64,000 nt of DNA, taken from assembly GCF_057098645.1 (NCBI RefSeq), contig NZ_CM169472.1; one strand, 5' to 3'. The position numbers were made by a program, and so were the translations under genes. The notes under the pieces are model-generated. The model was not told the DNA's origin, did not search any database, and worked only from the letters and a program-made list of their open reading frames with translations. This document shows positions 19,997 through 31,559 of the stretch, piece by piece. The first letter of the stretch is position 1; the number at the start of each line of letters is the position of its first letter.

Positions 19997-20830
19997 TCAA
20001 CGCATATTCAGTTTATTGGCGTGGTAGGCAATATGCTCGCCAATAAAACTGGAGACAAAATAATAGCTGTGGTCGTAACCCTCGTGATAACGGATTAACG
20101 TCTTGATATTCATCTCCTGGCAGATCTTTTCAAGATTTGGAGTCCGCAGCTGTTCTGCGTAAAAATCATCACTCAACCCCTGATCAACCATGATTTCCGC
20201 AACGCGTTGACCTTGTGAAATAAGACTCACCGGATCGTAATCCAACCAGGCCTCTTTATTTTCACCAAGATATGCGGCAAAGGCTTGCTGTCCCCACGGT
20301 ACTTGCGATGGGGAGACAATGGGCGAAAACGCCGAGACGCTGACATATTCATCTGGGTTACGTAACGCCAGCACCAGCGCGCCCAGCCCGCCCATAGAAT
20401 GACCAGAGATAGACTTTTTGGTCGTTGCCGGAAAATGATGCATCACTAAATCCGGCAGTTCGTTGCGGATATAGTCATACATTTTGTAATGTTCATTCCA
20501 CGGCGCTTGCGTCGCGTTCAGGTAAAACCCGGCACCTTGCCCGAGATCGTAACGGTCAGCATCTGCGACATGACTGCCTCGCGGACTGGTGTCCGGCGCA
20601 ACAACAATAATGTTGTGCTCAGCCGCGTAACGCTGCATCCCCGATTTAGTAATGAAATTCTGCTCGTTGCAGGTCAGGCCTGAAAGCCAGTACAGCACCG
20701 GCAATTTTTCATTCGCGGCTTTTGGTGGGAGATAGACGCCGACATTCATTTCACATTTCAGTGATTGGGAATAATGCCGATACACATTTTGCCAGCCGCC
20801 AAAGCTGGCATGTTTTTCAATGAGTTCCAT
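19997..20830 (-). CDS. frmB: S-formylglutathione hydrolase FrmB, 277 aa
   Basis: MELIEKHASFGGWQNVYRHYSQSLKCEMNVGVYLPP...; esterase D family with GHSMGG motif. Confidence 0.95.
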   Translation of the reverse strand: MELIEKHASFGGWQNVYRHYSQSLKCEMNVGVYLPPKAANEKLPVLYWLSGLTCNEQNFITKSGMQRYAAEHNIIVVAPDTSPRGSHVADADRYDLGQGAGFYLNATQAPWNEHYKMYDYIRNELPDLVMHHFPATTKKSISGHSMGGLGALVLALRNPDEYVSVSAFSPIVSPSQVPWGQQAFAAYLGENKEAWLDYDPVSLISQGQRVAEIMVDQGLSDDFYAEQLRTPNLEKICQEMNIKTLIRYHEGYDHSYYFVSSFIGEHIAYHANKLNMR

Positions 20831-20922: not shown

Positions 20923-22062
<1,140 letters not shown>

Positions 22063-22066
22063 TCAG

Positions 22067-22342
22067 CTATTTAAGATAGGCACGAACCAGTTCAATAGTG
22101 TCGTCAACGGATTGGCTGACTTCGCGGCTGTAGCAGTCATTTCGGTCAAACGTTTCCCGGATATGGCTTTCAAGCACTTCTGCCATCAGCCCATTAGCCG
22201 CGCCCCGAACGGCAGCGATCTGTTGGAGTATGGCACGGCATTCGGCATCACCCTCCAGCGACCGTTCCAGAGCATCAATCTGCCCTCGAATACGACGAAC
22301 TCGAGTAAGGACCTTTTTCTTCTCTTCCGGAGTACTGGGCAT
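22067..22342 (-). CDS. frmR: Formaldehyde-responsive repressor FrmR (CsoR/RcnR family), 91 aa
   Basis: [53 protein letters not shown]...; the ORF track extends seven codons upstream. Confidence 0.93.
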
Positions 22343-22368
22343 TTCGCACCTCATCATCTGCACGCAAT

Positions 22369-22417
22369 ATACTATAGGGGGGTATGCTATATGTCAATAC
22401 ATACCCCCCTATAGTAT
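22369..22417. promoter_or_regulatory. Candidate FrmR operator: inverted repeat with G6/C6 tracts upstream of frmR
   Basis: ATACTATAGGGGGGTAT-(15 nt)-ATACCCCCCTATAGTAT; TACT-G6/C6-AGTA architecture typical of RcnR/FrmR-family operators. Confidence 0.7.
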
Positions 22418-22501
22418 ATAACACTGGAGAATAATTGTTGTCCGAAGCCTAACCAGGTGAACGGTCCCTCAAGACAGATGGGGACCGTTTATGTGCTATT
22501 T

Positions 22502-23548
22502 TTATGCCGCATCCGCTAAAACAAACATCCCGTAAGGATGGATTTCGAGGTAATAGTGCTCACCAATATCGGGCTGTAAACGGGTGGCGTTTACTTGTAA
22601 TAAAATCTCCTGTCCATGCCACTCTACGGTCACTTCGTACTGCGGCCCCATGTAGGCGACATGGCGAATAACACAACGCTGACTCTCTTCGCCGTGATTG
22701 CTTAAGGTGATGGCTTCCGGGCGAACGCCGACGGTGCCGCTACCTTGCGCCGGGAAATGCGCCGCGCGCGGCAGGCGATAACCGTAGATATCGACATACT
22801 CTTCGCTAAAGTTCGCCGGGAACAGGTTGGCGTCGCCCATAAAACTTGCCATAAATCGGGAGGCTGGCTGACGATAGAGATCCTGCGGTGAGCCAATCTG
22901 CATGATGTGACCTTTATTCATCACCAGCACAGTGTCGGACACCGCGAAAGCTTCACTTTGATCGTGAGTGACGTAGAGCGACGTGATATTAAACTGCTTT
23001 TGCAGCTCGCGGATCTTATCGCGCATACTGCGGCGCAGGTTGGCATCGAGGTTACTTAACGGCTCATCAAACAGCAGCACCTTTGGCTTGAGGATCAACG
23101 CGCGGGCCAGTGCCACACGCTGTTGCTGACCACCGGAAATCTGATCGACATAGCGGTCCTCGAAGCCTTCCAGATCCACCATTGCCAGCGCCTCCTTCAC
23201 CCGCTGTTTCACTTCGCTACGCGACACGCCAAGCATCTTCAGCCCGTAGCCAACGTTTTCACCCAGCGACATATGCGGGAACAGAGCGTATGACTGAAAC
23301 ACCATGCAGATATCGCGCTGTTGAATGGAACGATGCGTGACATCTTCGCCATCAATAAAAATTTGCCCTTCGCTCGGTTTTTCCAGCCCGGCAACCAGAC
23401 GCAAAATGGTGGTTTTGCCACAGCCGGAAGGACCGAGCAGCGTCACCATTTGCCCTTGTGGAATGGTGAGATTGATATTGTCGATAACCGTATTACTGCC
23501 GAATCGTTTAGTGACGTTGCGCAGTTCAACAAAATTTTTCTGACTCAT
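22502..23548 (-). CDS. afuC: ABC transporter ATP-binding subunit, AfuC/FbpC-like, about 348 aa
   Basis: Walker [10 protein letters not shown], signature [15 protein letters not shown], Walker B LLFDEP; likely start [12 protein letters not shown] with RBS ggagcg; the ORF track extends to 23560. Confidence 0.88.
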
Positions 23549-23559
23549 AGTGCGCTCCA

Positions 23560-25638
23560 TTACGCCTGGTTTTTGGCTTTAGAACGGGAGATACGAGCTT
23601 CTCCGATCAGCCAGTCAAAGAGGAAAATAATCGCCAGCATCACCACGATCAGAATCGAACCATAGGCGATGGCTACGCCATATTCGCCGTCTTCAACGCG
23701 GTTAAGAATGTAGGCGGTTGCCACGCGGGTGTCCGGCGTGACGAGAAAGACGATGGCGCTGACCGTCGTGATGGCCCGCACAAAGCTGTAGATCAGGGCC
23801 GAGAGAATGGCCGGGCGCAGCAGCGGCAGTAAAATGTGCGTAATGGTTCGCAGTGAACCCGCGCGCAGGCTGAGTGAGGCTTCATCCAGCGATTTGTCGA
23901 TCTGCCCCAGGCCTGCAATCCCGGCGCGAATACCCACCGGAACGTTACGCATCACCATCGAGATAATCACAATTGCCGCCGTTCCGGTGAGATAAACCGG
24001 AGCGCTGTTAAAGGCAAGAATATACGAAACGCCCGCCACCGTACCCGGTACGGCAAAGCACAGCATGGTGGTGAACTCGATGGTCTTTTTGCCTTTGAAT
24101 TGTTGACGCACCACCACCCAGGCGATGAGCAGGCCAAAGATAGCGGTAATGGGAGCGGCAATCCCGGCGTAGAGCAGGGTATCCAGCAGTGAAGGCCACG
24201 CGCCGTCGCTCATTCCCTGACCAAATAGCTTGATAAAGTTATCCAGCGTCAGGGTGTAGTCCACGCCCCAGTTCACCGTGAAGCTGCCGTAGAAAATGCT
24301 GCCGTAGAGCAGGGCGTTAAAGGCAATCCATATCGCAAGTATGGCGACCACGCTCCATACCAGGGTGACCGGTAGCGGCTGGACGTCGCCACGGTAGGAT
24401 TTGCCGGAAACCGTGACGTAAGAGCGTTTACCAATCCACATATACTGGATGCAGAACACCAGCAGCGAGAACAGCAGCAGGAAAGCGCCAAGGGTGCTGG
24501 CGGCCTGATAATCCAGCTGCGAGCCGGTAATATAGAAGTAAATTTGCGTCGCCAGTACGTCGAAGTTACCGCCAAGTACCAGCGGGTTACTGAAATCAGC
24601 CAGTGACTGTACCACGACGATTAAAAAGGCATTGGCGAGTGCGGGCTTCAACAACGGCACAAACACGCCGTTAAAGGTTTGCCAGCGGCTGGCGCGCAGG
24701 GTGTAGGAGGCCTCTTCCAGCGAGGGATGAATGGTTTTAATGGCCCCGTCGAGGATCATAAATGCCATTGGCGTGAATGCCAGAACCTGTGCCAGCCAGA
24801 TCCCGGTAAAACCGTACAGCCAGTTGGTGTTGGTCAGCCCAAACCACTCCACCATAAATTCCGTAACATAGCCGGAGCGCCCCATCATGAGCGTCACGCC
24901 TAAGCCGACCACAAACGGTGGCGTAACGATGGGCAAAATGGAAAAGATGCGACCAATAATGGCGCTGCGTTTAGCGATGCGCGTGGTATAAATCGCCAGC
25001 ACCAGGCCGAAGAAAGTACAGCCTATCCCCACCGCTATCGACAAGACGATAGAGTTGACGATCACCTGAACAATATGTGCCTGCGAGAGCACGGTCATAA
25101 ACGCCAGCGGGGCGAACTCTCCCGCGTCGTTGGTGAACATCGGGATAAAAATGGCGATGCTCGGCCAGACGATAAAAATGCCAATCAGCGCCACAATCGC
25201 AATCAGTGAGCCGATCACGAAGCGGTCGCCACCCAGCCATTCGAGGCGGGTTAAGGCCAGCGTCATAATCGCGCCTAGTTCGACAAACAGCACGATGGCG
25301 GCGTAGCCTAAACCGCGTCCAACCACGGTGGCGCTGATGACGATAAACGCCATACAGAGCAATGCCCAGCCGGCATCGAAATAATGACGGCTACGTTGTT
25401 CGCGCGTGGCCTCACTAAACGGGCGGACCAGCAACAGGCTCGGGAGTAAATACCACAGCCAGCTGATATTAAAATGCGACCAGCCGTACGCCCCGAGGAT
25501 CTCATCACTCGTGGACTCCAGCAGGCCATAATCGAGGCTCCAGCTCGGCAACAGGACAAATGCCAGCCAACCCAGCAAAACCCAAAGGAAAATCGCATCC
25601 CGCTTTTTCACGGGATGGAGTGCAAGTGTCTGTGACAT
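23560..25638 (-). CDS. afuB: ABC transporter fused double permease, AfuB/FbpB-like, 692 aa
   Basis: Two tandem multi-TM permease halves; its stop overlaps the longest afuC ORF. Confidence 0.85.
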
Positions 25639-25706
25639 AGCAGTTCCGGTATGGTTGGCCGGGGCAGGCGTCTGCGCTGCACCCGGAAAATACGCCTAAT
25701 GCGGGT

Positions 25707-26738
25707 TTATTTACCCATCTTCACTTCGCTGACCCATTTATTAATCAATGCCTTACGAACATCCGTGGAACCATATTTATCCATGTCGTAGTTGATTAAT
25801 TTCAGGTCGTCGAGCTTCAGTGAATTTGGCGACGTTTCGGCGGTGGTATTGGTCAGGATCTGATAAGACTTCCCTTTCTTCCACGCCAGTTCCTGAGCTT
25901 CTTTTGATAATACCCAGTCCACAAACAGTTTGGCGTTGTCGAGGTTGCGCGCGCCTTTCAGAATGCTGACGCCGCCAATTTCGTAGCCTGTACCTTCACA
26001 CGGGGAAATCAACTCCAGCGGCGCGCCCTGTTCTTTTTCCAGCGAGTAGTCATGCAGGAAGCCAATACCAATCGCCGTTTCGCCACGGGCGGCGTTACGT
26101 GCCGGGGCTATGCCTGATTTGGTGTACTGAGAGACGTTGGCGTTCAGTTGTTTTAGATAATCAAAGGCCTGATCTTCCCCCCACAGCTGCGCAAAAGTAG
26201 CCAGGGCGGTGTAGGCAGTACCGGAACTTTGCGGATCGGCAATTTGAATTTCGCCTTTATATTCCGGTTTGGTGAGATCTTTCCAGCACTTCGGCACCGG
26301 CAGGTTTTTCTCTTTCAGACGATCGGTGTTTACGCCAAAACCGAGGATCCCCACATAAACGGCAGAGGACAGATTCCCTTTCACTTTTGCCGGATCGCGG
26401 AATTTCTCCATGATCTGCTCAAGGTTAGGGGATTTATACGCCTGTAGCAGGCCCATCTCGCCAGCCTGCGATTGCGGGTCTAAAGTGCCGCCGTACCAGA
26501 CGTCAGCCTGGGGGTTTTTCTTTTCAGCATCGACTTTTGCCAGGGTGCTTCCGGAACCGTTGCGGATAAACGAGGTTTTTACATCATATTTCTCGCCAAA
26601 CGCTTTGGTTTCGGCCTCACACATTTCATTGGTGGCGCTGCAATAGACCACCAGCCGGCCTTTTGCCTGCGCGGCACCCGTTAAAGTCGCCAGCGCAACG
26701 GCAGAAGCAATCAGAGTAGAGGTAAAGGTCATTTTCAT
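25707..26738 (-). CDS. afuA: Periplasmic substrate-binding protein, AfuA/FbpA-like, about 343 aa with signal peptide
   Basis: MKMTFTSTLIASAVALATLTGAAQA signal peptide followed by a type-II binding-protein fold; the longer ORF (to 27065) overlaps the upstream gene and is an artefact. Confidence 0.85.
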   Translation of the reverse strand: MKMTFTSTLIASAVALATLTGAAQAKGRLVVYCSATNEMCEAETKAFGEKYDVKTSFIRNGSGSTLAKVDAEKKNPQADVWYGGTLDPQSQAGEMGLLQAYKSPNLEQIMEKFRDPAKVKGNLSSAVYVGILGFGVNTDRLKEKNLPVPKCWKDLTKPEYKGEIQIADPQSSGTAYTALATFAQLWGEDQAFDYLKQLNANVSQYTKSGIAPARNAARGETAIGIGFLHDYSLEKEQGAPLELISPCEGTGYEIGGVSILKGARNLDNAKLFVDWVLSKEAQELAWKKGKSYQILTNTTAETSPNSLKLDDLKLINYDMDKYGSTDVRKALINKWVSEVKMGK

Positions 26739-28051
26739 TGTTTTATCCTTCGAGCGTGAGTGGTGGTGATGCCCGCCATCAGTAACGGCATCAGCAGTAA
26801 ACCCATAAGTACTGCGGCGACCGAGAGTAAACTGAACATTCCCGGCCAGCCGTAGCGTTCGATGACCAGCGACAGCGGCCAGCCTGCCAGCGCCGCGCCA
26901 AGGTAAGCGAACAGGCCGAGAAATCCGGTGATTGAACCCGCCGCAGCTTTGTGCCCACACTCCACCGCCGCAAGTCCAATCAGCATTTGTGGGCCAAAGA
27001 CGAAAAAGCCCACGGTAAAAAAGCACACTGCCAGCAGAGCGTAGTGATGAACCGGTGCCAGCCACAGTGCGGCGACTGACACCATCAACCCCAACGTGAA
27101 CAGCAAAATCATTGGCGCTCGTTGCCCGCTAAACAGCAAATCCGATCCCCATCCGGCAAATAACGCGCCGAGTAAGCCGCCCACTTCAAACAGCATTACC
27201 GTGGCGTTGGCGCTGAGCAGGTTGACACCGTGGCTTTCCGTCAGCCAGATATTGCCCCAGTCGTTAAGCGCAATCCGGATCACATAAACCAGTACATAAG
27301 AGACGCCCAGTAGCCAGATCAGCGGATTTTGCAGCATGGTGGTGCGCAACATTTGCCACAGCCCCATCGGCGGACTTTGTTGTTCCTGACGTAACTCCAG
27401 CGGATCGTGACGCCAGTGACCAACTGTCGGTAATCCCTCTTCCTGGGGCGTGCCTTTGAGTTGTAGCGTTAACCAGATCCCTAATGCCATGCTGATTATC
27501 CCCGGTGTCAGCATCGCGGCCTGCCAGCCCCACCAGTGGGCGGCAAAGGCGCTAATCAGCGGAATAATCGCTCCGCCAATGTTGATCGACATATTCCAGC
27601 AGCCCCACCAGAAACCGCGCTCATTGCGTGAGTACCAGTGGGTCAGCAAGCGGGCACACGGTGGCCATCCCCAGCCCTGAAAAAAACCGTTCAGTGTCCA
27701 GACCACAAGCAGAAGCGTAAGTGATTCGCCAAAGGCAAACACCACGTTCAATAACCCGGTGGCGAACAAGCCGACGCCCATAAAACCGCGTTGTCCATGG
27801 CTGTCATGCCACAGTCCGGCGGTAAATTTCGACAATCCGTAGCTGAGATAAAACAGCGAACCCAGCAGGCCAATGTCGCCTTTATCCAGTCCGAGGTCGG
27901 TTTGTAGCGCCGGAAGGACGTAATTCACGCTTTTTCGCGTCAGATAAAATGCGGCGTAGCCAATAATCATGCACATCAGCAATCGCGGACGTAATGTCCG
28001 GTAGCATTGATTAATTTCTCTCGCTGAACGCGCGTGCATGGTTGTCTCCAT
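26735..28051 (-). CDS. UhpC-like sugar-phosphate sensor/transporter (MFS, organophosphate:Pi antiporter family), 438 aa
   Basis: ...YAAFYLTRKSVNYVLPALQTDLGLDKGDIGLLGSLFYLSYGLSKF... resembles UhpC/UhpT/GlpT; its stop TGA overlaps the afuA start ATG (cAATGAaa). Confidence 0.82.
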   Translation of the reverse strand: METTMHARSAREINQCYRTLRPRLLMCMIIGYAAFYLTRKSVNYVLPALQTDLGLDKGDIGLLGSLFYLSYGLSKFTAGLWHDSHGQRGFMGVGLFATGLLNVVFAFGESLTLLLVVWTLNGFFQGWGWPPCARLLTHWYSRNERGFWWGCWNMSINIGGAIIPLISAFAAHWWGWQAAMLTPGIISMALGIWLTLQLKGTPQEEGLPTVGHWRHDPLELRQEQQSPPMGLWQMLRTTMLQNPLIWLLGVSYVLVYVIRIALNDWGNIWLTESHGVNLLSANATVMLFEVGGLLGALFAGWGSDLLFSGQRAPMILLFTLGLMVSVAALWLAPVHHYALLAVCFFTVGFFVFGPQMLIGLAAVECGHKAAAGSITGFLGLFAYLGAALAGWPLSLVIERYGWPGMFSLLSVAAVLMGLLLMPLLMAGITTTHARRIKQ

Positions 28052-28123
28052 GTTGCTGACTATATGAAAATGAAAGTGAAAGGGGATGAGAGAAAATCCG
28101 GGATACCTAAGACTTTTTCCTGG

Positions 28124-29665
28124 TTATCCGGCGATTTGTTGCAAAAATGTGGGCAAGTTAACAATTACCCGCGTGCCGTGCTGTTTTTCGAGCGTTAAGT
28201 CGCCGCCCAGGGCGCTGACGCGCTCACGCATCCCCTGAATGCCAAATCCGGCCATTTTCCCGCTGGCGATCCCCACACCGTTGTCGCTGACTTCCAGATG
28301 CAATACCTCTCCCTGCTGGCGCAGGATAATCGTCACTTCGCTGGCTTCGGCGTGTTTACAGACGTTATTGAGCAACTCCTGTAATAACCGATACAAGGTA
28401 AAGCGCACCGTTTCGTTTTCTGGTGTGGAGTTCAGTTGATAGGCAAACTGGCAATGAATGCCGCGTTCACTAAAGGCAAATTCATTAATCAGATGCAACA
28501 ACGCTTCGCGAAATGTCAGTTCATCAAGCGCGGGAGGCCGCAACTGGCGCAGCAATTGGCGGGTGGAGAGATGAATGCGGCGGGCGAGCTCATTGATTTG
28601 GCTGGCTGCGGATTGAATTTGCGCCGGATCACGCGCCCGCTTCACCAGTTGCGACTGGATCTGAATGGCGGTGATGTTCTGACCGATTTCGTCGTGCAGC
28701 TCTCGCGCCAGGTTTTTTCGCGTGTCCTCCTCGGTGTGGATCAGCTTTTCCGCCAATGCCCGCCGCGCTGCCAGCTCGGCCTCCAGCCGTTGTCGGTAAT
28801 GGTGCAGGTTTAGCGCCAGATGTTGCTGGCGACTGATGGCAATGCCCAGGCCAATTCCCAGCAAGGCCTGGGTCGCGAGGAAAATCTCCAGCTCCACCAG
28901 GTTACTAAAGCCCACGCCAACCTGGCGGGCGATGGTGATCATCATGCTGCCCAAAAGCCCGGAGAGTACGCCACCTTGCCAGCCAAATTTCCACGCCATC
29001 ACCACATTGGGCAAAAAGACCACGATCAACAGCAGACGTTCAATTTCAGGTGACAGCACCATCTGAGTGCCGATACCAATAATAAAAAACAGGCTACACC
29101 AGATGATTAAAGAGGTACGCAAGGGGGGATTATGCGTATCGAGTCCCAGGAGCTGGTAGCGATGCTGCTGGCGCAGAAACTCAAAGATAAGATAGACAAA
29201 CGGCGTCAGTAATACGCCGCCGGTAAATGAGGTCAAACCCGGCAGCATTATTGGGCCTGACATAAAAGGGGAGAGCAGGGCGGTATTCAACAATGAAGCT
29301 GCCGTGACAGTGGCTAACAGCAACGTCAGACGCTGCCAGTAAAGTGGAAAACGGTGCCAGAAGTTTTGTGCAAGGAGGGCAGGAAACAGGCTAATAACCG
29401 GCGTTGCCAGCATGAGATAACCGTTCAATAGCTGTTCACTATGGAGCCAGAACATCATCAGCAAAGGGGGGAGCACCAACGCAGGCCAGTAGCGGCGAGA
29501 GAGCAAAATAACAAGGGCGAGATAAACTCCCTGCGGGAGAAACAACACCGCCTGTTGACCGTTATTGGTCAGATAAAAGCTGAGCGTCCACAGCATCAGC
29601 CAGCCGGTTCCCCAGGCCAGCACAATAAACAGCGAAATCACCCAATGACGAAGATTGCGCGACAT
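28124..29665 (-). CDS. UhpB-like membrane sensor histidine kinase, 513 aa
   Basis: Multi-TM N-terminal domain, H-box ELHDEIGQNITAIQIQ and C-terminal HATPase region; start ATG overlaps the stop of the upstream regulator (TAATG). Confidence 0.85.
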   Translation of the reverse strand: MSRNLRHWVISLFIVLAWGTGWLMLWTLSFYLTNNGQQAVLFLPQGVYLALVILLSRRYWPALVLPPLLMMFWLHSEQLLNGYLMLATPVISLFPALLAQNFWHRFPLYWQRLTLLLATVTAASLLNTALLSPFMSGPIMLPGLTSFTGGVLLTPFVYLIFEFLRQQHRYQLLGLDTHNPPLRTSLIIWCSLFFIIGIGTQMVLSPEIERLLLIVVFLPNVVMAWKFGWQGGVLSGLLGSMMITIARQVGVGFSNLVELEIFLATQALLGIGLGIAISRQQHLALNLHHYRQRLEAELAARRALAEKLIHTEEDTRKNLARELHDEIGQNITAIQIQSQLVKRARDPAQIQSAASQINELARRIHLSTRQLLRQLRPPALDELTFREALLHLINEFAFSERGIHCQFAYQLNSTPENETVRFTLYRLLQELLNNVCKHAEASEVTIILRQQGEVLHLEVSDNGVGIASGKMAGFGIQGMRERVSALGGDLTLEKQHGTRVIVNLPTFLQQIAG

Positions 29666-30294
29666 TAATGCCCCGCCAGCAGATGGTGGTCGAGCGCAAA
29701 ATGTACCAGTTCAATGGTGCTATGGCAGTTCAGTTTTCCCAGCACATTGGCGCGATGCACATGTACCGTTTTATGACTGAGTTCGAGTTTAAAGGCGATC
29801 TCTTTAACGCTGTCTCCTTTGACCAGTAAATCAAACACTTCACGTTCTCGTGGGGTGAGAATTTCCAGCGCCTGGGCGGGTTGCCCGCCGCCGCGTAAAG
29901 CCCGAATCGCATCGGCACAGAGATAATGCCCGCCCAGCCCGACCGAGCGCACCGCCTGTACTAACTCTTCCGGCCCACAGCGTTTGGTTAAATACCCGCT
30001 GGCACCGGCATCCAGCGCGCTTTGCACAAAGGTTGGCGCGTCATAAATGCTAAGAATAATGGCGCGAAATTGCGGTTTTTGTGCACGCAGGCGCTTAAGC
30101 AAACTGAGGCCGTTTTCGTCCGGCATGGCAATATCAATGACGGCAACATTGACGTCATCACGGATTAATGCCGACCATGCCTGCGCGGCACTACTGTACT
30201 GACCAATGACCTCCAGATCGTCTTCCAGAGAGAGTAATTGTGCGAAGCCAGAGCGCACCACCACATGGTCATCCACCAGCACTACCCGAATCAT
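29665..30294 (-). CDS. UhpA-like response regulator (NarL/FixJ family, LuxR-type HTH), 209 aa
   Basis: MIRVVLVDDHVVVRSGFAQLL... receiver domain with Asp in VAVIDIAMPD; C-terminal HTH ...KEIAFKLELSHKTVHVHRANVLGKL. Confidence 0.87.
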   Translation of the reverse strand: MIRVVLVDDHVVVRSGFAQLLSLEDDLEVIGQYSSAAQAWSALIRDDVNVAVIDIAMPDENGLSLLKRLRAQKPQFRAIILSIYDAPTFVQSALDAGASGYLTKRCGPEELVQAVRSVGLGGHYLCADAIRALRGGGQPAQALEILTPREREVFDLLVKGDSVKEIAFKLELSHKTVHVHRANVLGKLNCHSTIELVHFALDHHLLAGH

Positions 30295-30596
30295 ACTTTT
30301 CTTCTCTTATTATCTAATTCTCCTATCATGCATCACGGCGCGGCGCTGGCAATCAACCAGCGACAGATATGGAATGGATGTAACAAAATGGCAATAATTT
30401 GCCGGAGCGCGCACATCTTATCTGGCTTGTGAACCGGCGGGATACGTTCGCCAAAACCGCAAAATGCGCAAACTCGCTAACCATTGCCGATTTTTTTCTA
30501 AAAACGCTTTGTTCTTAACAAGACCTTTTAATTCCTTTATCAAACTGACCCGCAACGAAATACTGCTCCCATAACAAGACAGGGGAGCAGACAATC

Positions 30597-31559
30597 ATGG
30601 CAATTTCATCGCGTAACACTCTTCTTGCCGCACTGGCATTCATCGCTTTTCAGGCGCAGGCGGTGAACGTCACCGTGGCGTATCAAACCTCAGCCGAACC
30701 GGCGAAAGTGGCTCAGGCCGACAACACCTTTGCTAAAGAAAGCGGAGCAACCGTGGACTGGCGTAAGTTTGACAGCGGAGCCAGCATCGTGCGGGCGCTG
30801 GCTTCTGGCGACGTGCAAATCGGCAACCTTGGTTCCAGCCCGTTAGCGGTTGCAGCCAGCCAACAGGTGCCGATTGAAGTCTTCTTGCTGGCGTCAAAAC
30901 TGGGTAACTCCGAAGCGCTGGTGGTAAAGAAAACTATCAGCAAACCGGAAGATCTGATTGGCAAACGCATCGCCGTACCGTTTATCTCCACCACCCACTA
31001 CAGCCTGCTGGCGGCGCTGAAACACTGGGGCATTAAACCCGGGCAAGTGGAGATTGTGAACCTGCAGCCGCCCGCGATTATCGCTGCCTGGCAGCGGGGA
31101 GATATTGATGGTGCTTATGTCTGGGCACCGGCGGTTAACGCCCTGGAAAAAGACGGCAAGGTGTTGACCGATTCTGAACAGGTCGGGCAGTGGGGCGCGC
31201 CAACGCTGGACGTTTGGGTGGTGCGCAAAAATTTTGCCGAGAAACATCCTGAGGTCGTGAAAGCGTTCGCTAAAAGCGCCATCGATGCTCAGCAACCGTA
31301 CATTGCTAACCCAGACGTGTGGCTGAAACAGCCGGAAAACATCAGCAAACTGGCGCGTTTAAGCGGCGTGCCGGAAGGTGACGTGCCGGGGCTGGTGAAG
31401 GGGAATACCTATCTGACGCCGCAGCAACAAACGGCAGAACTGACCGGACCGGTGAACAAAGCGATCATCGACACCGCGCAGTTTTTGAAAGAGCAGGGCA
31501 AGGTCCCGGCTGTAGCGAATGATTACAGCCAGTACGTTACCTCGCGCTTCGTGCAATAA
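30597..31559 (+). CDS. tauA: Taurine ABC transporter periplasmic binding protein TauA, 320 aa
   Basis: MAISSRNTLLAALAFIAFQAQAVNVTVAYQTSAEPAKVAQAD... Confidence 0.95.
   Translation: MAISSRNTLLAALAFIAFQAQAVNVTVAYQTSAEPAKVAQADNTFAKESGATVDWRKFDSGASIVRALASGDVQIGNLGSSPLAVAASQQVPIEVFLLASKLGNSEALVVKKTISKPEDLIGKRIAVPFISTTHYSLLAALKHWGIKPGQVEIVNLQPPAIIAAWQRGDIDGAYVWAPAVNALEKDGKVLTDSEQVGQWGAPTLDVWVVRKNFAEKHPEVVKAFAKSAIDAQQPYIANPDVWLKQPENISKLARLSGVPEGDVPGLVKGNTYLTPQQQTAELTGPVNKAIIDTAQFLKEQGKVPAVANDYSQYVTSRFVQ

Follow-up and report, generated by a model that had tools for sequence, protein, structure and literature searches.

The locus analysed here raises the question of what function is served by an inverted repeat located immediately upstream of frmR in the window, i.e., the whole stretch of 64,000 nucleotides under analysis. 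Direct reading of the sequence located ATACTATAGGGGGGTAT at positions 22369-22385 and ATACCCCCCTATAGTAT at 22401-22417, and both the coordinates and the distance to the gene agreed with the original prediction, in which these two 17-mers were described as an inverted pair upstream of frmR. The true symmetry is longer than had been claimed: a repeat finder identified a perfect inverted repeat with arms of 20 nt, ATATACTATAGGGGGGTATG (22367-22386) and CATACCCCCCTATAGTATAT (22400-22419), separated by a 13-nt asymmetric spacer. The entire 20/13/20 palindrome (22367..22419; repeat finder and legend of Figure 6a in Denby et al. 2016) occupies the interval from 25 to 77 nt before the frmR ATG, and the 17-mer boxes lie 27-75 nt upstream of this codon. 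Each arm includes one ATAC-N9-GTAT box. The frmR-proximal box (22369..22385) reads ATACTATAGGGGGGTAT on the plus strand and ATACCCCCCTATAGTAT in the frmR sense, and the distal box (22401..22417) is its exact reverse complement; the box centres, at 22377 and 22409, are 32 bp apart by measurement. These are the only two ATAC-N9-GTAT matches in the 64-kb window, where 0.42 would be expected, and a search for the 16-mer TACTATAGGGGGGTAT with up to 3 mismatches found only the two arms in the same 64 kb (0.14 expected). This anatomy was observed directly, and the motif counts and the folding of the region compared with that of shuffled sequences indicated that the repeat is beyond chance.

The gene that follows the repeat, located at 22067..22342 on the minus strand with its ATG at 22342, codes for 91 amino acids followed by a stop codon. 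Its product was identified as FrmR by the NCBIfam equivalog NF008464 (189 bits versus a cut-off of 133), reached 68 bits on the RcnR model, the cut-off of which is 138, and matched Pfam PF02583, the DUF156 metal-sensitive repressor family. Both Pro2 and Cys35 are present. RefSeq annotates the gene order as frmR-frmA-fghA, with frmA at 20923-22032 and frmB/fghA at 19997-20830, both on the minus strand and both transcribed with frmR from the promoter at the operator. The boxes directly precede a bona fide frmR that heads a frmR-frmA(-frmB) operon, and both this linkage and the identity of the gene were shown in the present analysis.

A sigma-70 consensus scan of the region 22000-22700 detected a single promoter-like site, which is on the minus strand and within the palindrome. 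Its -35-like hexamer, TTGACA (22397-22392), is in the spacer of the repeat and its -10-like hexamer, TAGTAT (22374-22369), is in the proximal box, with a spacing of 17 nt and 10 of 12 positions matching the consensus. An alternative -10, TATAGT (22371-22376, minus strand), has a 15-nt spacing, and the assignment of the true -10 to one hexamer or the other is a prediction. The proximal box covers the -10 hexamer and the distal box is found just upstream of the -35 hexamer. The operator overlaps the core promoter elements predicted by the scan, and a repressor that blocks RNA polymerase when bound would be expected to have its site arranged in this way, with a -35 in the spacer and a -10 in the proximal box. 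The bound repressor would presumably act by covering the -10 hexamer together with the DNA that immediately precedes the -35.

This repeat has already been described at the E. coli frmRAB promoter, Pfrm. Denby et al. (2016; Sci Rep 6:38879; PMC5146963) reported a large inverted repeat centred at -29 consisting of tandem type I FrmR sites, in which ATAC and GTAT are on either side of a G/C-rich tract. With the centre of the palindrome at 22393, the transcription start that they predicted corresponds to a position around 22364 in the window, in agreement with the -10 identified by the scan. In the same study, E. coli FrmR bound Pfrm DNA with a Kd of ~220 nM compared to ~3600 nM for unrelated DNA, formaldehyde dissociated the FrmR-Pfrm complex, and FrmR repressed frmRAB in in vitro transcription assays (PMC5146963). 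Published work also showed that deletion of frmR derepresses the operon, and a later engineering paper refers to ATACN9GTAT as "the FrmR binding site" (PMC11127321). A review (PMC6540204) included nothing further on the FrmR operator. It is from this literature that we take the binding of FrmR to this DNA, its dissociation in the presence of formaldehyde, and the repression seen both in vitro and in vivo.

Taking together the identity of frmR, the description by Denby et al. and the conservation of the boxes described below, which support the candidate FrmR operator put forward in the original prediction, we consider it very nearly certain that the repeat is the operator-promoter (Pfrm) of the frmRAB formaldehyde-detoxification operon, bound by the repressor FrmR. 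In the proposed mechanism, two identical 17-bp FrmR boxes arranged head to head would make up the 20/13/20 palindrome, and tetrameric FrmR, a member of the CsoR/RcnR (DUF156) family, would block RNA polymerase when bound to them. Since FrmR would be acting on its own promoter, the operon would repress itself. Formaldehyde would then link Pro2 of one subunit to Cys35 of its neighbour through methylene bridges, a modification expected to remodel the DNA-binding surface and cause FrmR to dissociate, and this release would permit transcription of frmR, frmA and frmB.

Some elements of this mechanism are less firmly defined. Denby et al. left two models, one with two tetramers bound and another with one tetramer bridging both boxes, and described the structure of the FrmR-DNA complex as work in progress (PMC5146963); any number of tetramers assigned to the two boxes is an inference. 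The box boundaries and the two-box stoichiometry are still a model, as the published work yielded neither a footprint nor a structure of FrmR bound to Pfrm DNA. Furthermore, the boxes alone may not be sufficient for repression, since a truncated promoter that kept both of them lost repression in one reporter study (PMC11127321).

The resemblance between FrmR and other members of its family made it necessary to consider that the boxes are mainly bound by a paralogue, RcnR or another CsoR-family protein, instead of FrmR. The type I architecture does resemble that of RcnR sites, and the score of FrmR on the RcnR model points in the same direction. The site has a G6 or C6 run flanked by ATACTATA and TAT, as is characteristic of type I operators of the CsoR/RcnR family. 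The TACT-G6/C6-AGTA architecture originally attributed to it is only a loose approximation, as the exact RcnR pattern is not present, with one half-site being imperfect and the G-run displaced to one side. Each FrmR box reads A-TACT-ATAGGGG-GGTA-T, so that ATAC-N9-GTAT is equivalent to TACT-N7-GGTA, and the spacing of the half-sites, TACT-N7-(A/G)GTA, is the sole feature in common with the RcnR consensus. This consensus, TACT-G6-N-AGTA, could not be matched at 22367-22419 with up to 3 mismatches. Moreover, the box tracks frmR-frmA pairs in which FrmR has Pro2 and Cys35, and both the published binding of FrmR to Pfrm and the derepression caused by the frmR deletion argue against a paralogue as the main ligand, which we regard as most improbable. 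The comparison indicates that the FrmR operator is of the type I class as judged from its sequence, but is not an RcnR box.

The symmetry of the palindrome could also be exploited in RNA, as a hairpin acting as terminator or processing signal for read-through from an upstream co-directional gene rather than as a protein-binding operator. The region folds as minus-strand RNA into a 21-bp stem of -40.8 kcal/mol (z = -7.0 versus shuffled sequences), and the gene upstream, afuC in the window and yaiO in K-12, is on the same strand as frmR. However, the stem is not followed by a T-run, the next bases on the minus strand being TGCGTGCAG, and a terminator scan made no call at the repeat, on which grounds the terminator reading was ruled out. 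In addition, the distance between the repeat and frmR is fixed whatever the upstream gene is (afuC, yaiO or other), and the single box found in most other lineages cannot make a long stem. A function as an RNA hairpin is consequently highly unlikely. In Rfam, even with a permissive E-value, the matches were limited to eukaryotic miRNA precursors and scaRNAs, all far below their gathering scores, and were dismissed as generic hairpin noise.

The FrmR operator is highly conserved in Escherichia. Of 5426 complete E. coli genomes, 5408 had an 80-nt stretch including it with at least 90% identity, and when 12 Escherichia sequences were aligned, neither box showed any change in E. coli and the cryptic Escherichia. 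E. albertii had one substitution, in the proximal G-run, and the remaining variation was confined to the spacer edges, 22386 and 22399, plus position 22363. A segment of 1101 nt around the operator (21900-23000) was 100% identical to that of E. coli O145:H28 strain RM12761. One E. coli genome, FJ_Ec_21 (NZ_CP143627.1), has the spacer inverted, with GCATTGACATATAGA replacing TCTATATGTCAATGC (22386-22400 in the window), and consequently the TTGACA -35 is on the strand directed away from frmR. When the flipped spacer was searched in the 5,426 genomes at full length and at least 99% identity, no second genome was present among the matches listed; the configuration reflects either an error in the assembly or an inversion, rare in occurrence, between the two perfect arms.

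The repeat is next to DNA that differs among E. coli strains, and its location with respect to the boundary was established by alignment. The comparison with K-12 suggested in the original prediction, combined with the 12-sequence alignment, placed the left edge of the variable frmR-tauA segment at 22435..22445. Unbroken identity to K-12 ends at 22434, and the 12-sequence alignment showed a weaker 10-nt similarity across flank types up to 22444 and none beyond. The junction had been expected within about 85 bp of the operator, measured to the afuC stop; this was true but loose, as the actual distance is 15-25 nt from the distal arm. Such proximity would fit a repeat that belongs to the afu island, whether it served for recombination or attachment or formed the end of a mobile element as its terminal repeat. 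Nonetheless, the operator is wholly on the conserved side of the boundary, yaiO-type strains without afu keep both boxes unchanged, and distant genera without this island also have the box upstream of frmR. The presence of the same repeat in island-free genomes excluded an island-end repeat, and an origin in the island can hardly be credited at all.

The variable segment itself deserves some description. In the window, the frmR-tauA interval includes fbpC/afuC, afuB, afuA, a uhpC-like gene, a sensor histidine kinase and a response regulator, while the K-12 interval consists of yaiO, yaiX::IS2, yaiP and yaiS. The afu-type flank was present in 450 of the 5426 complete E. coli genomes (~8%). The stop codon of afuC (annotated as fbpC) is at 22502-22504. 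The region 22502-30294 is annotated as including a ferric ABC transporter (fbpC/afuCBA) beside the uhpC-like gene and the two-component system; the iron annotation is probably a misnomer, since AfuABC transports hexose and heptose phosphates (Sit et al. 2015, PMC4546632). At the other end, identity to K-12 resumes at ~30559, ~38 nt before the tauA ATG (30559-30597), and because this right junction is so near tauA, most of the upstream regulatory region of tauA differs from that of K-12, with only patchy similarity. The island DNA between the afuC stop and the operator also has a 9-bp perfect hairpin, AACGGTCCC / GGGACCGTT, with a 12-nt loop (22460-22489). No T-run is found on the afuC strand and its folding is only slightly better than that of shuffled sequences (z = -1.3); it is at best a putative afuC terminator.

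The change of flank could in principle affect the regulation of frmRAB, and we considered that island-bearing lineages such as O145:H28 and O157:H7 may have a basal level or an induction threshold different from those of K-12-type strains. This was proposed because the removal of upstream DNA abolished repression in the reporter study mentioned above (PMC11127321), and because RcnR is suggested to wrap flanking DNA non-specifically. The proposal is speculative, and an effect of the flank on the set-point of the operon seems unlikely.

The distribution of the box outside Escherichia was assessed in one scan of species-representative genomes, which produced 80 loci with FrmR relatives of 52-100% identity. 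All 79 loci in which the match begins at residue 1 have a Met-Pro start, the equivalent of Cys35 is found in 80/80, and a frmA homologue is located just downstream in 76 of the 80. ATAC-N9-GTAT occurred 83 times in 11,986 nt upstream of the frmR homologues versus 3 times in 241,778 nt of control DNA. At least one box was found within 150 nt upstream of the gene in 65 of the 80 loci, and two boxes were found in 18. The proximal box has the consensus ATACTCCCCTATAGTAT and starts mostly 43-45 nt from the ATG, with the C-rich strand in the frmR sense in 54 of the 65 cases. Its longest G/C run is of at least 4 nt in 46 of the 65 loci, and only 6 boxes have a run of 6. A pure G6/C6 on both arms was limited to the Escherichia loci; in most relatives the run is C4-C5 or is broken by other bases, as in the CTCCAC of several Enterobacterales. 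The G/C tract, the loss of which from other frmR promoters would have spoken against the operator, retains its C-rich core in these relatives. Comparison of the sequences indicates that the G/C-rich core is conserved and that the pure hexamer run is a local feature.

In loci with two boxes, TTGAC(A) is found in the spacer, at the place of the -35-like hexamer of the window, and the box centres are 32-35 bp apart. This layout was detected in Escherichia, Providencia, Edwardsiella, Pantoea, Serratia, Erwinia, Morganella and Aeromonas, as well as in Deefgea, where TTGCA replaces TTGACA. A single box is found in Tatumella, the Pasteurellaceae and most alpha- and betaproteobacterial loci. In many two-box loci, reverse-complementing the proximal box gives the distal one exactly or almost exactly, even when the core is unlike that of E. 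coli, as is expected if the same protein binds both boxes.

Other arrangements were also observed in this survey. Near-identical frmR upstream regions were found in unrelated genera, with one group consisting of Citrobacter, Klebsiella and Maribrevibacterium and another of an Edwardsiella plasmid, Enterobacter and Morganella, which suggests that they may be part of mobile formaldehyde-resistance cassettes. Loci of the first group have no frmA within 1.5 kb downstream, and their distal box has N10, not N9. Seven Lysobacter/Xanthomonadales loci (L032, L036-L038, L055, L058 and L080) are without a full box and have instead TATACT, a C7 run and then ACT. This ACT ends at the frmR ATG or, in L032, a few nucleotides before it, a layout that suggests another arrangement of half-sites or a very short or absent leader.

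The operator is already known and published, and the feature is an ordinary one. Our analysis amounts to its re-identification in an O145:H28-type genome and carries little weight as a discovery. It is of use as annotation, as it marks the frmRAB promoter/operator and sets 22435-22445 as the left edge of the segment that encodes the afu sugar-phosphate transporter. The survey adds that the form widely distributed in Proteobacteria is a single ATACTCCCCTATAGTAT-like box, and that the two-box palindrome bracketing the -35 is mainly confined to Enterobacterales, Aeromonas and Deefgea, a distribution that bears on the number of FrmR tetramers per E. coli operator.

The closest known system is Pfrm of E. 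coli K-12, which is at the same locus and has the same tandem ATAC-N9-GTAT type I boxes, arranged as a large inverted repeat that covers the promoter. Neither 17-bp box differs from its counterpart in the window. Three single-base changes separate the two sequences between frmR and the junction, at 22363, at 22386 (G here and T in K-12) and at 22399 (A here and G in K-12), and the perfect arms are of 20 nt here and 19 nt in K-12 because of the change at 22386. Beyond 22435-22445 the K-12 flank is yaiO-type, whereas that of the window is afu-type. The Salmonella Typhimurium frmRA promoter, frmRAPro, is also similar, in that it has a C6 tract between T/A-rich inverted repeats, and these repeats are required for binding (PMC4528141, PMC5016687). 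A Salmonella 33-mer, TTCTGATAGTATACCCCCCTATAGTATATGGAG, binds two FrmR tetramers with a KDNA of ~1e-7 M each (Osman 2015, 2016; PMC4528141, PMC5016687), and a mutant probe in which the ATAC-side flank was replaced abolished FrmR binding (Osman; PMC4528141, PMC5016687). This 33-mer shares 19 consecutive nucleotides, ATACCCCCCTATAGTATAT, with each arm in the window. The Salmonella promoter differs in having one C6 site, with two tetramers reported per 33-mer, while the E. coli operator has two boxes bracketing the -35. The RcnR operator in the rcnR-rcnA intergenic region of E. coli and Salmonella is more distant. As described by Iwig & Chivers (2009), cited by Denby et al., it likewise consists of tandem type I sites recognized by a DUF156 repressor, in which a G/C tract is combined with AT-rich half-sites that resemble TACT/AGTA and are spaced by 7 nt, but its G6-7 run fills the gap between TACT and AGTA and its site centres are separated by 19 bp. 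Denby et al. made the same comparison, with box centres 31 bp apart in Pfrm versus 19 bp for the rcnR-rcnA sites (PMC5146963). In the FrmR operator, the run is displaced from the middle of the box (TACT-ATAGGGG-GGTA) and 31-32 bp separate the centres.
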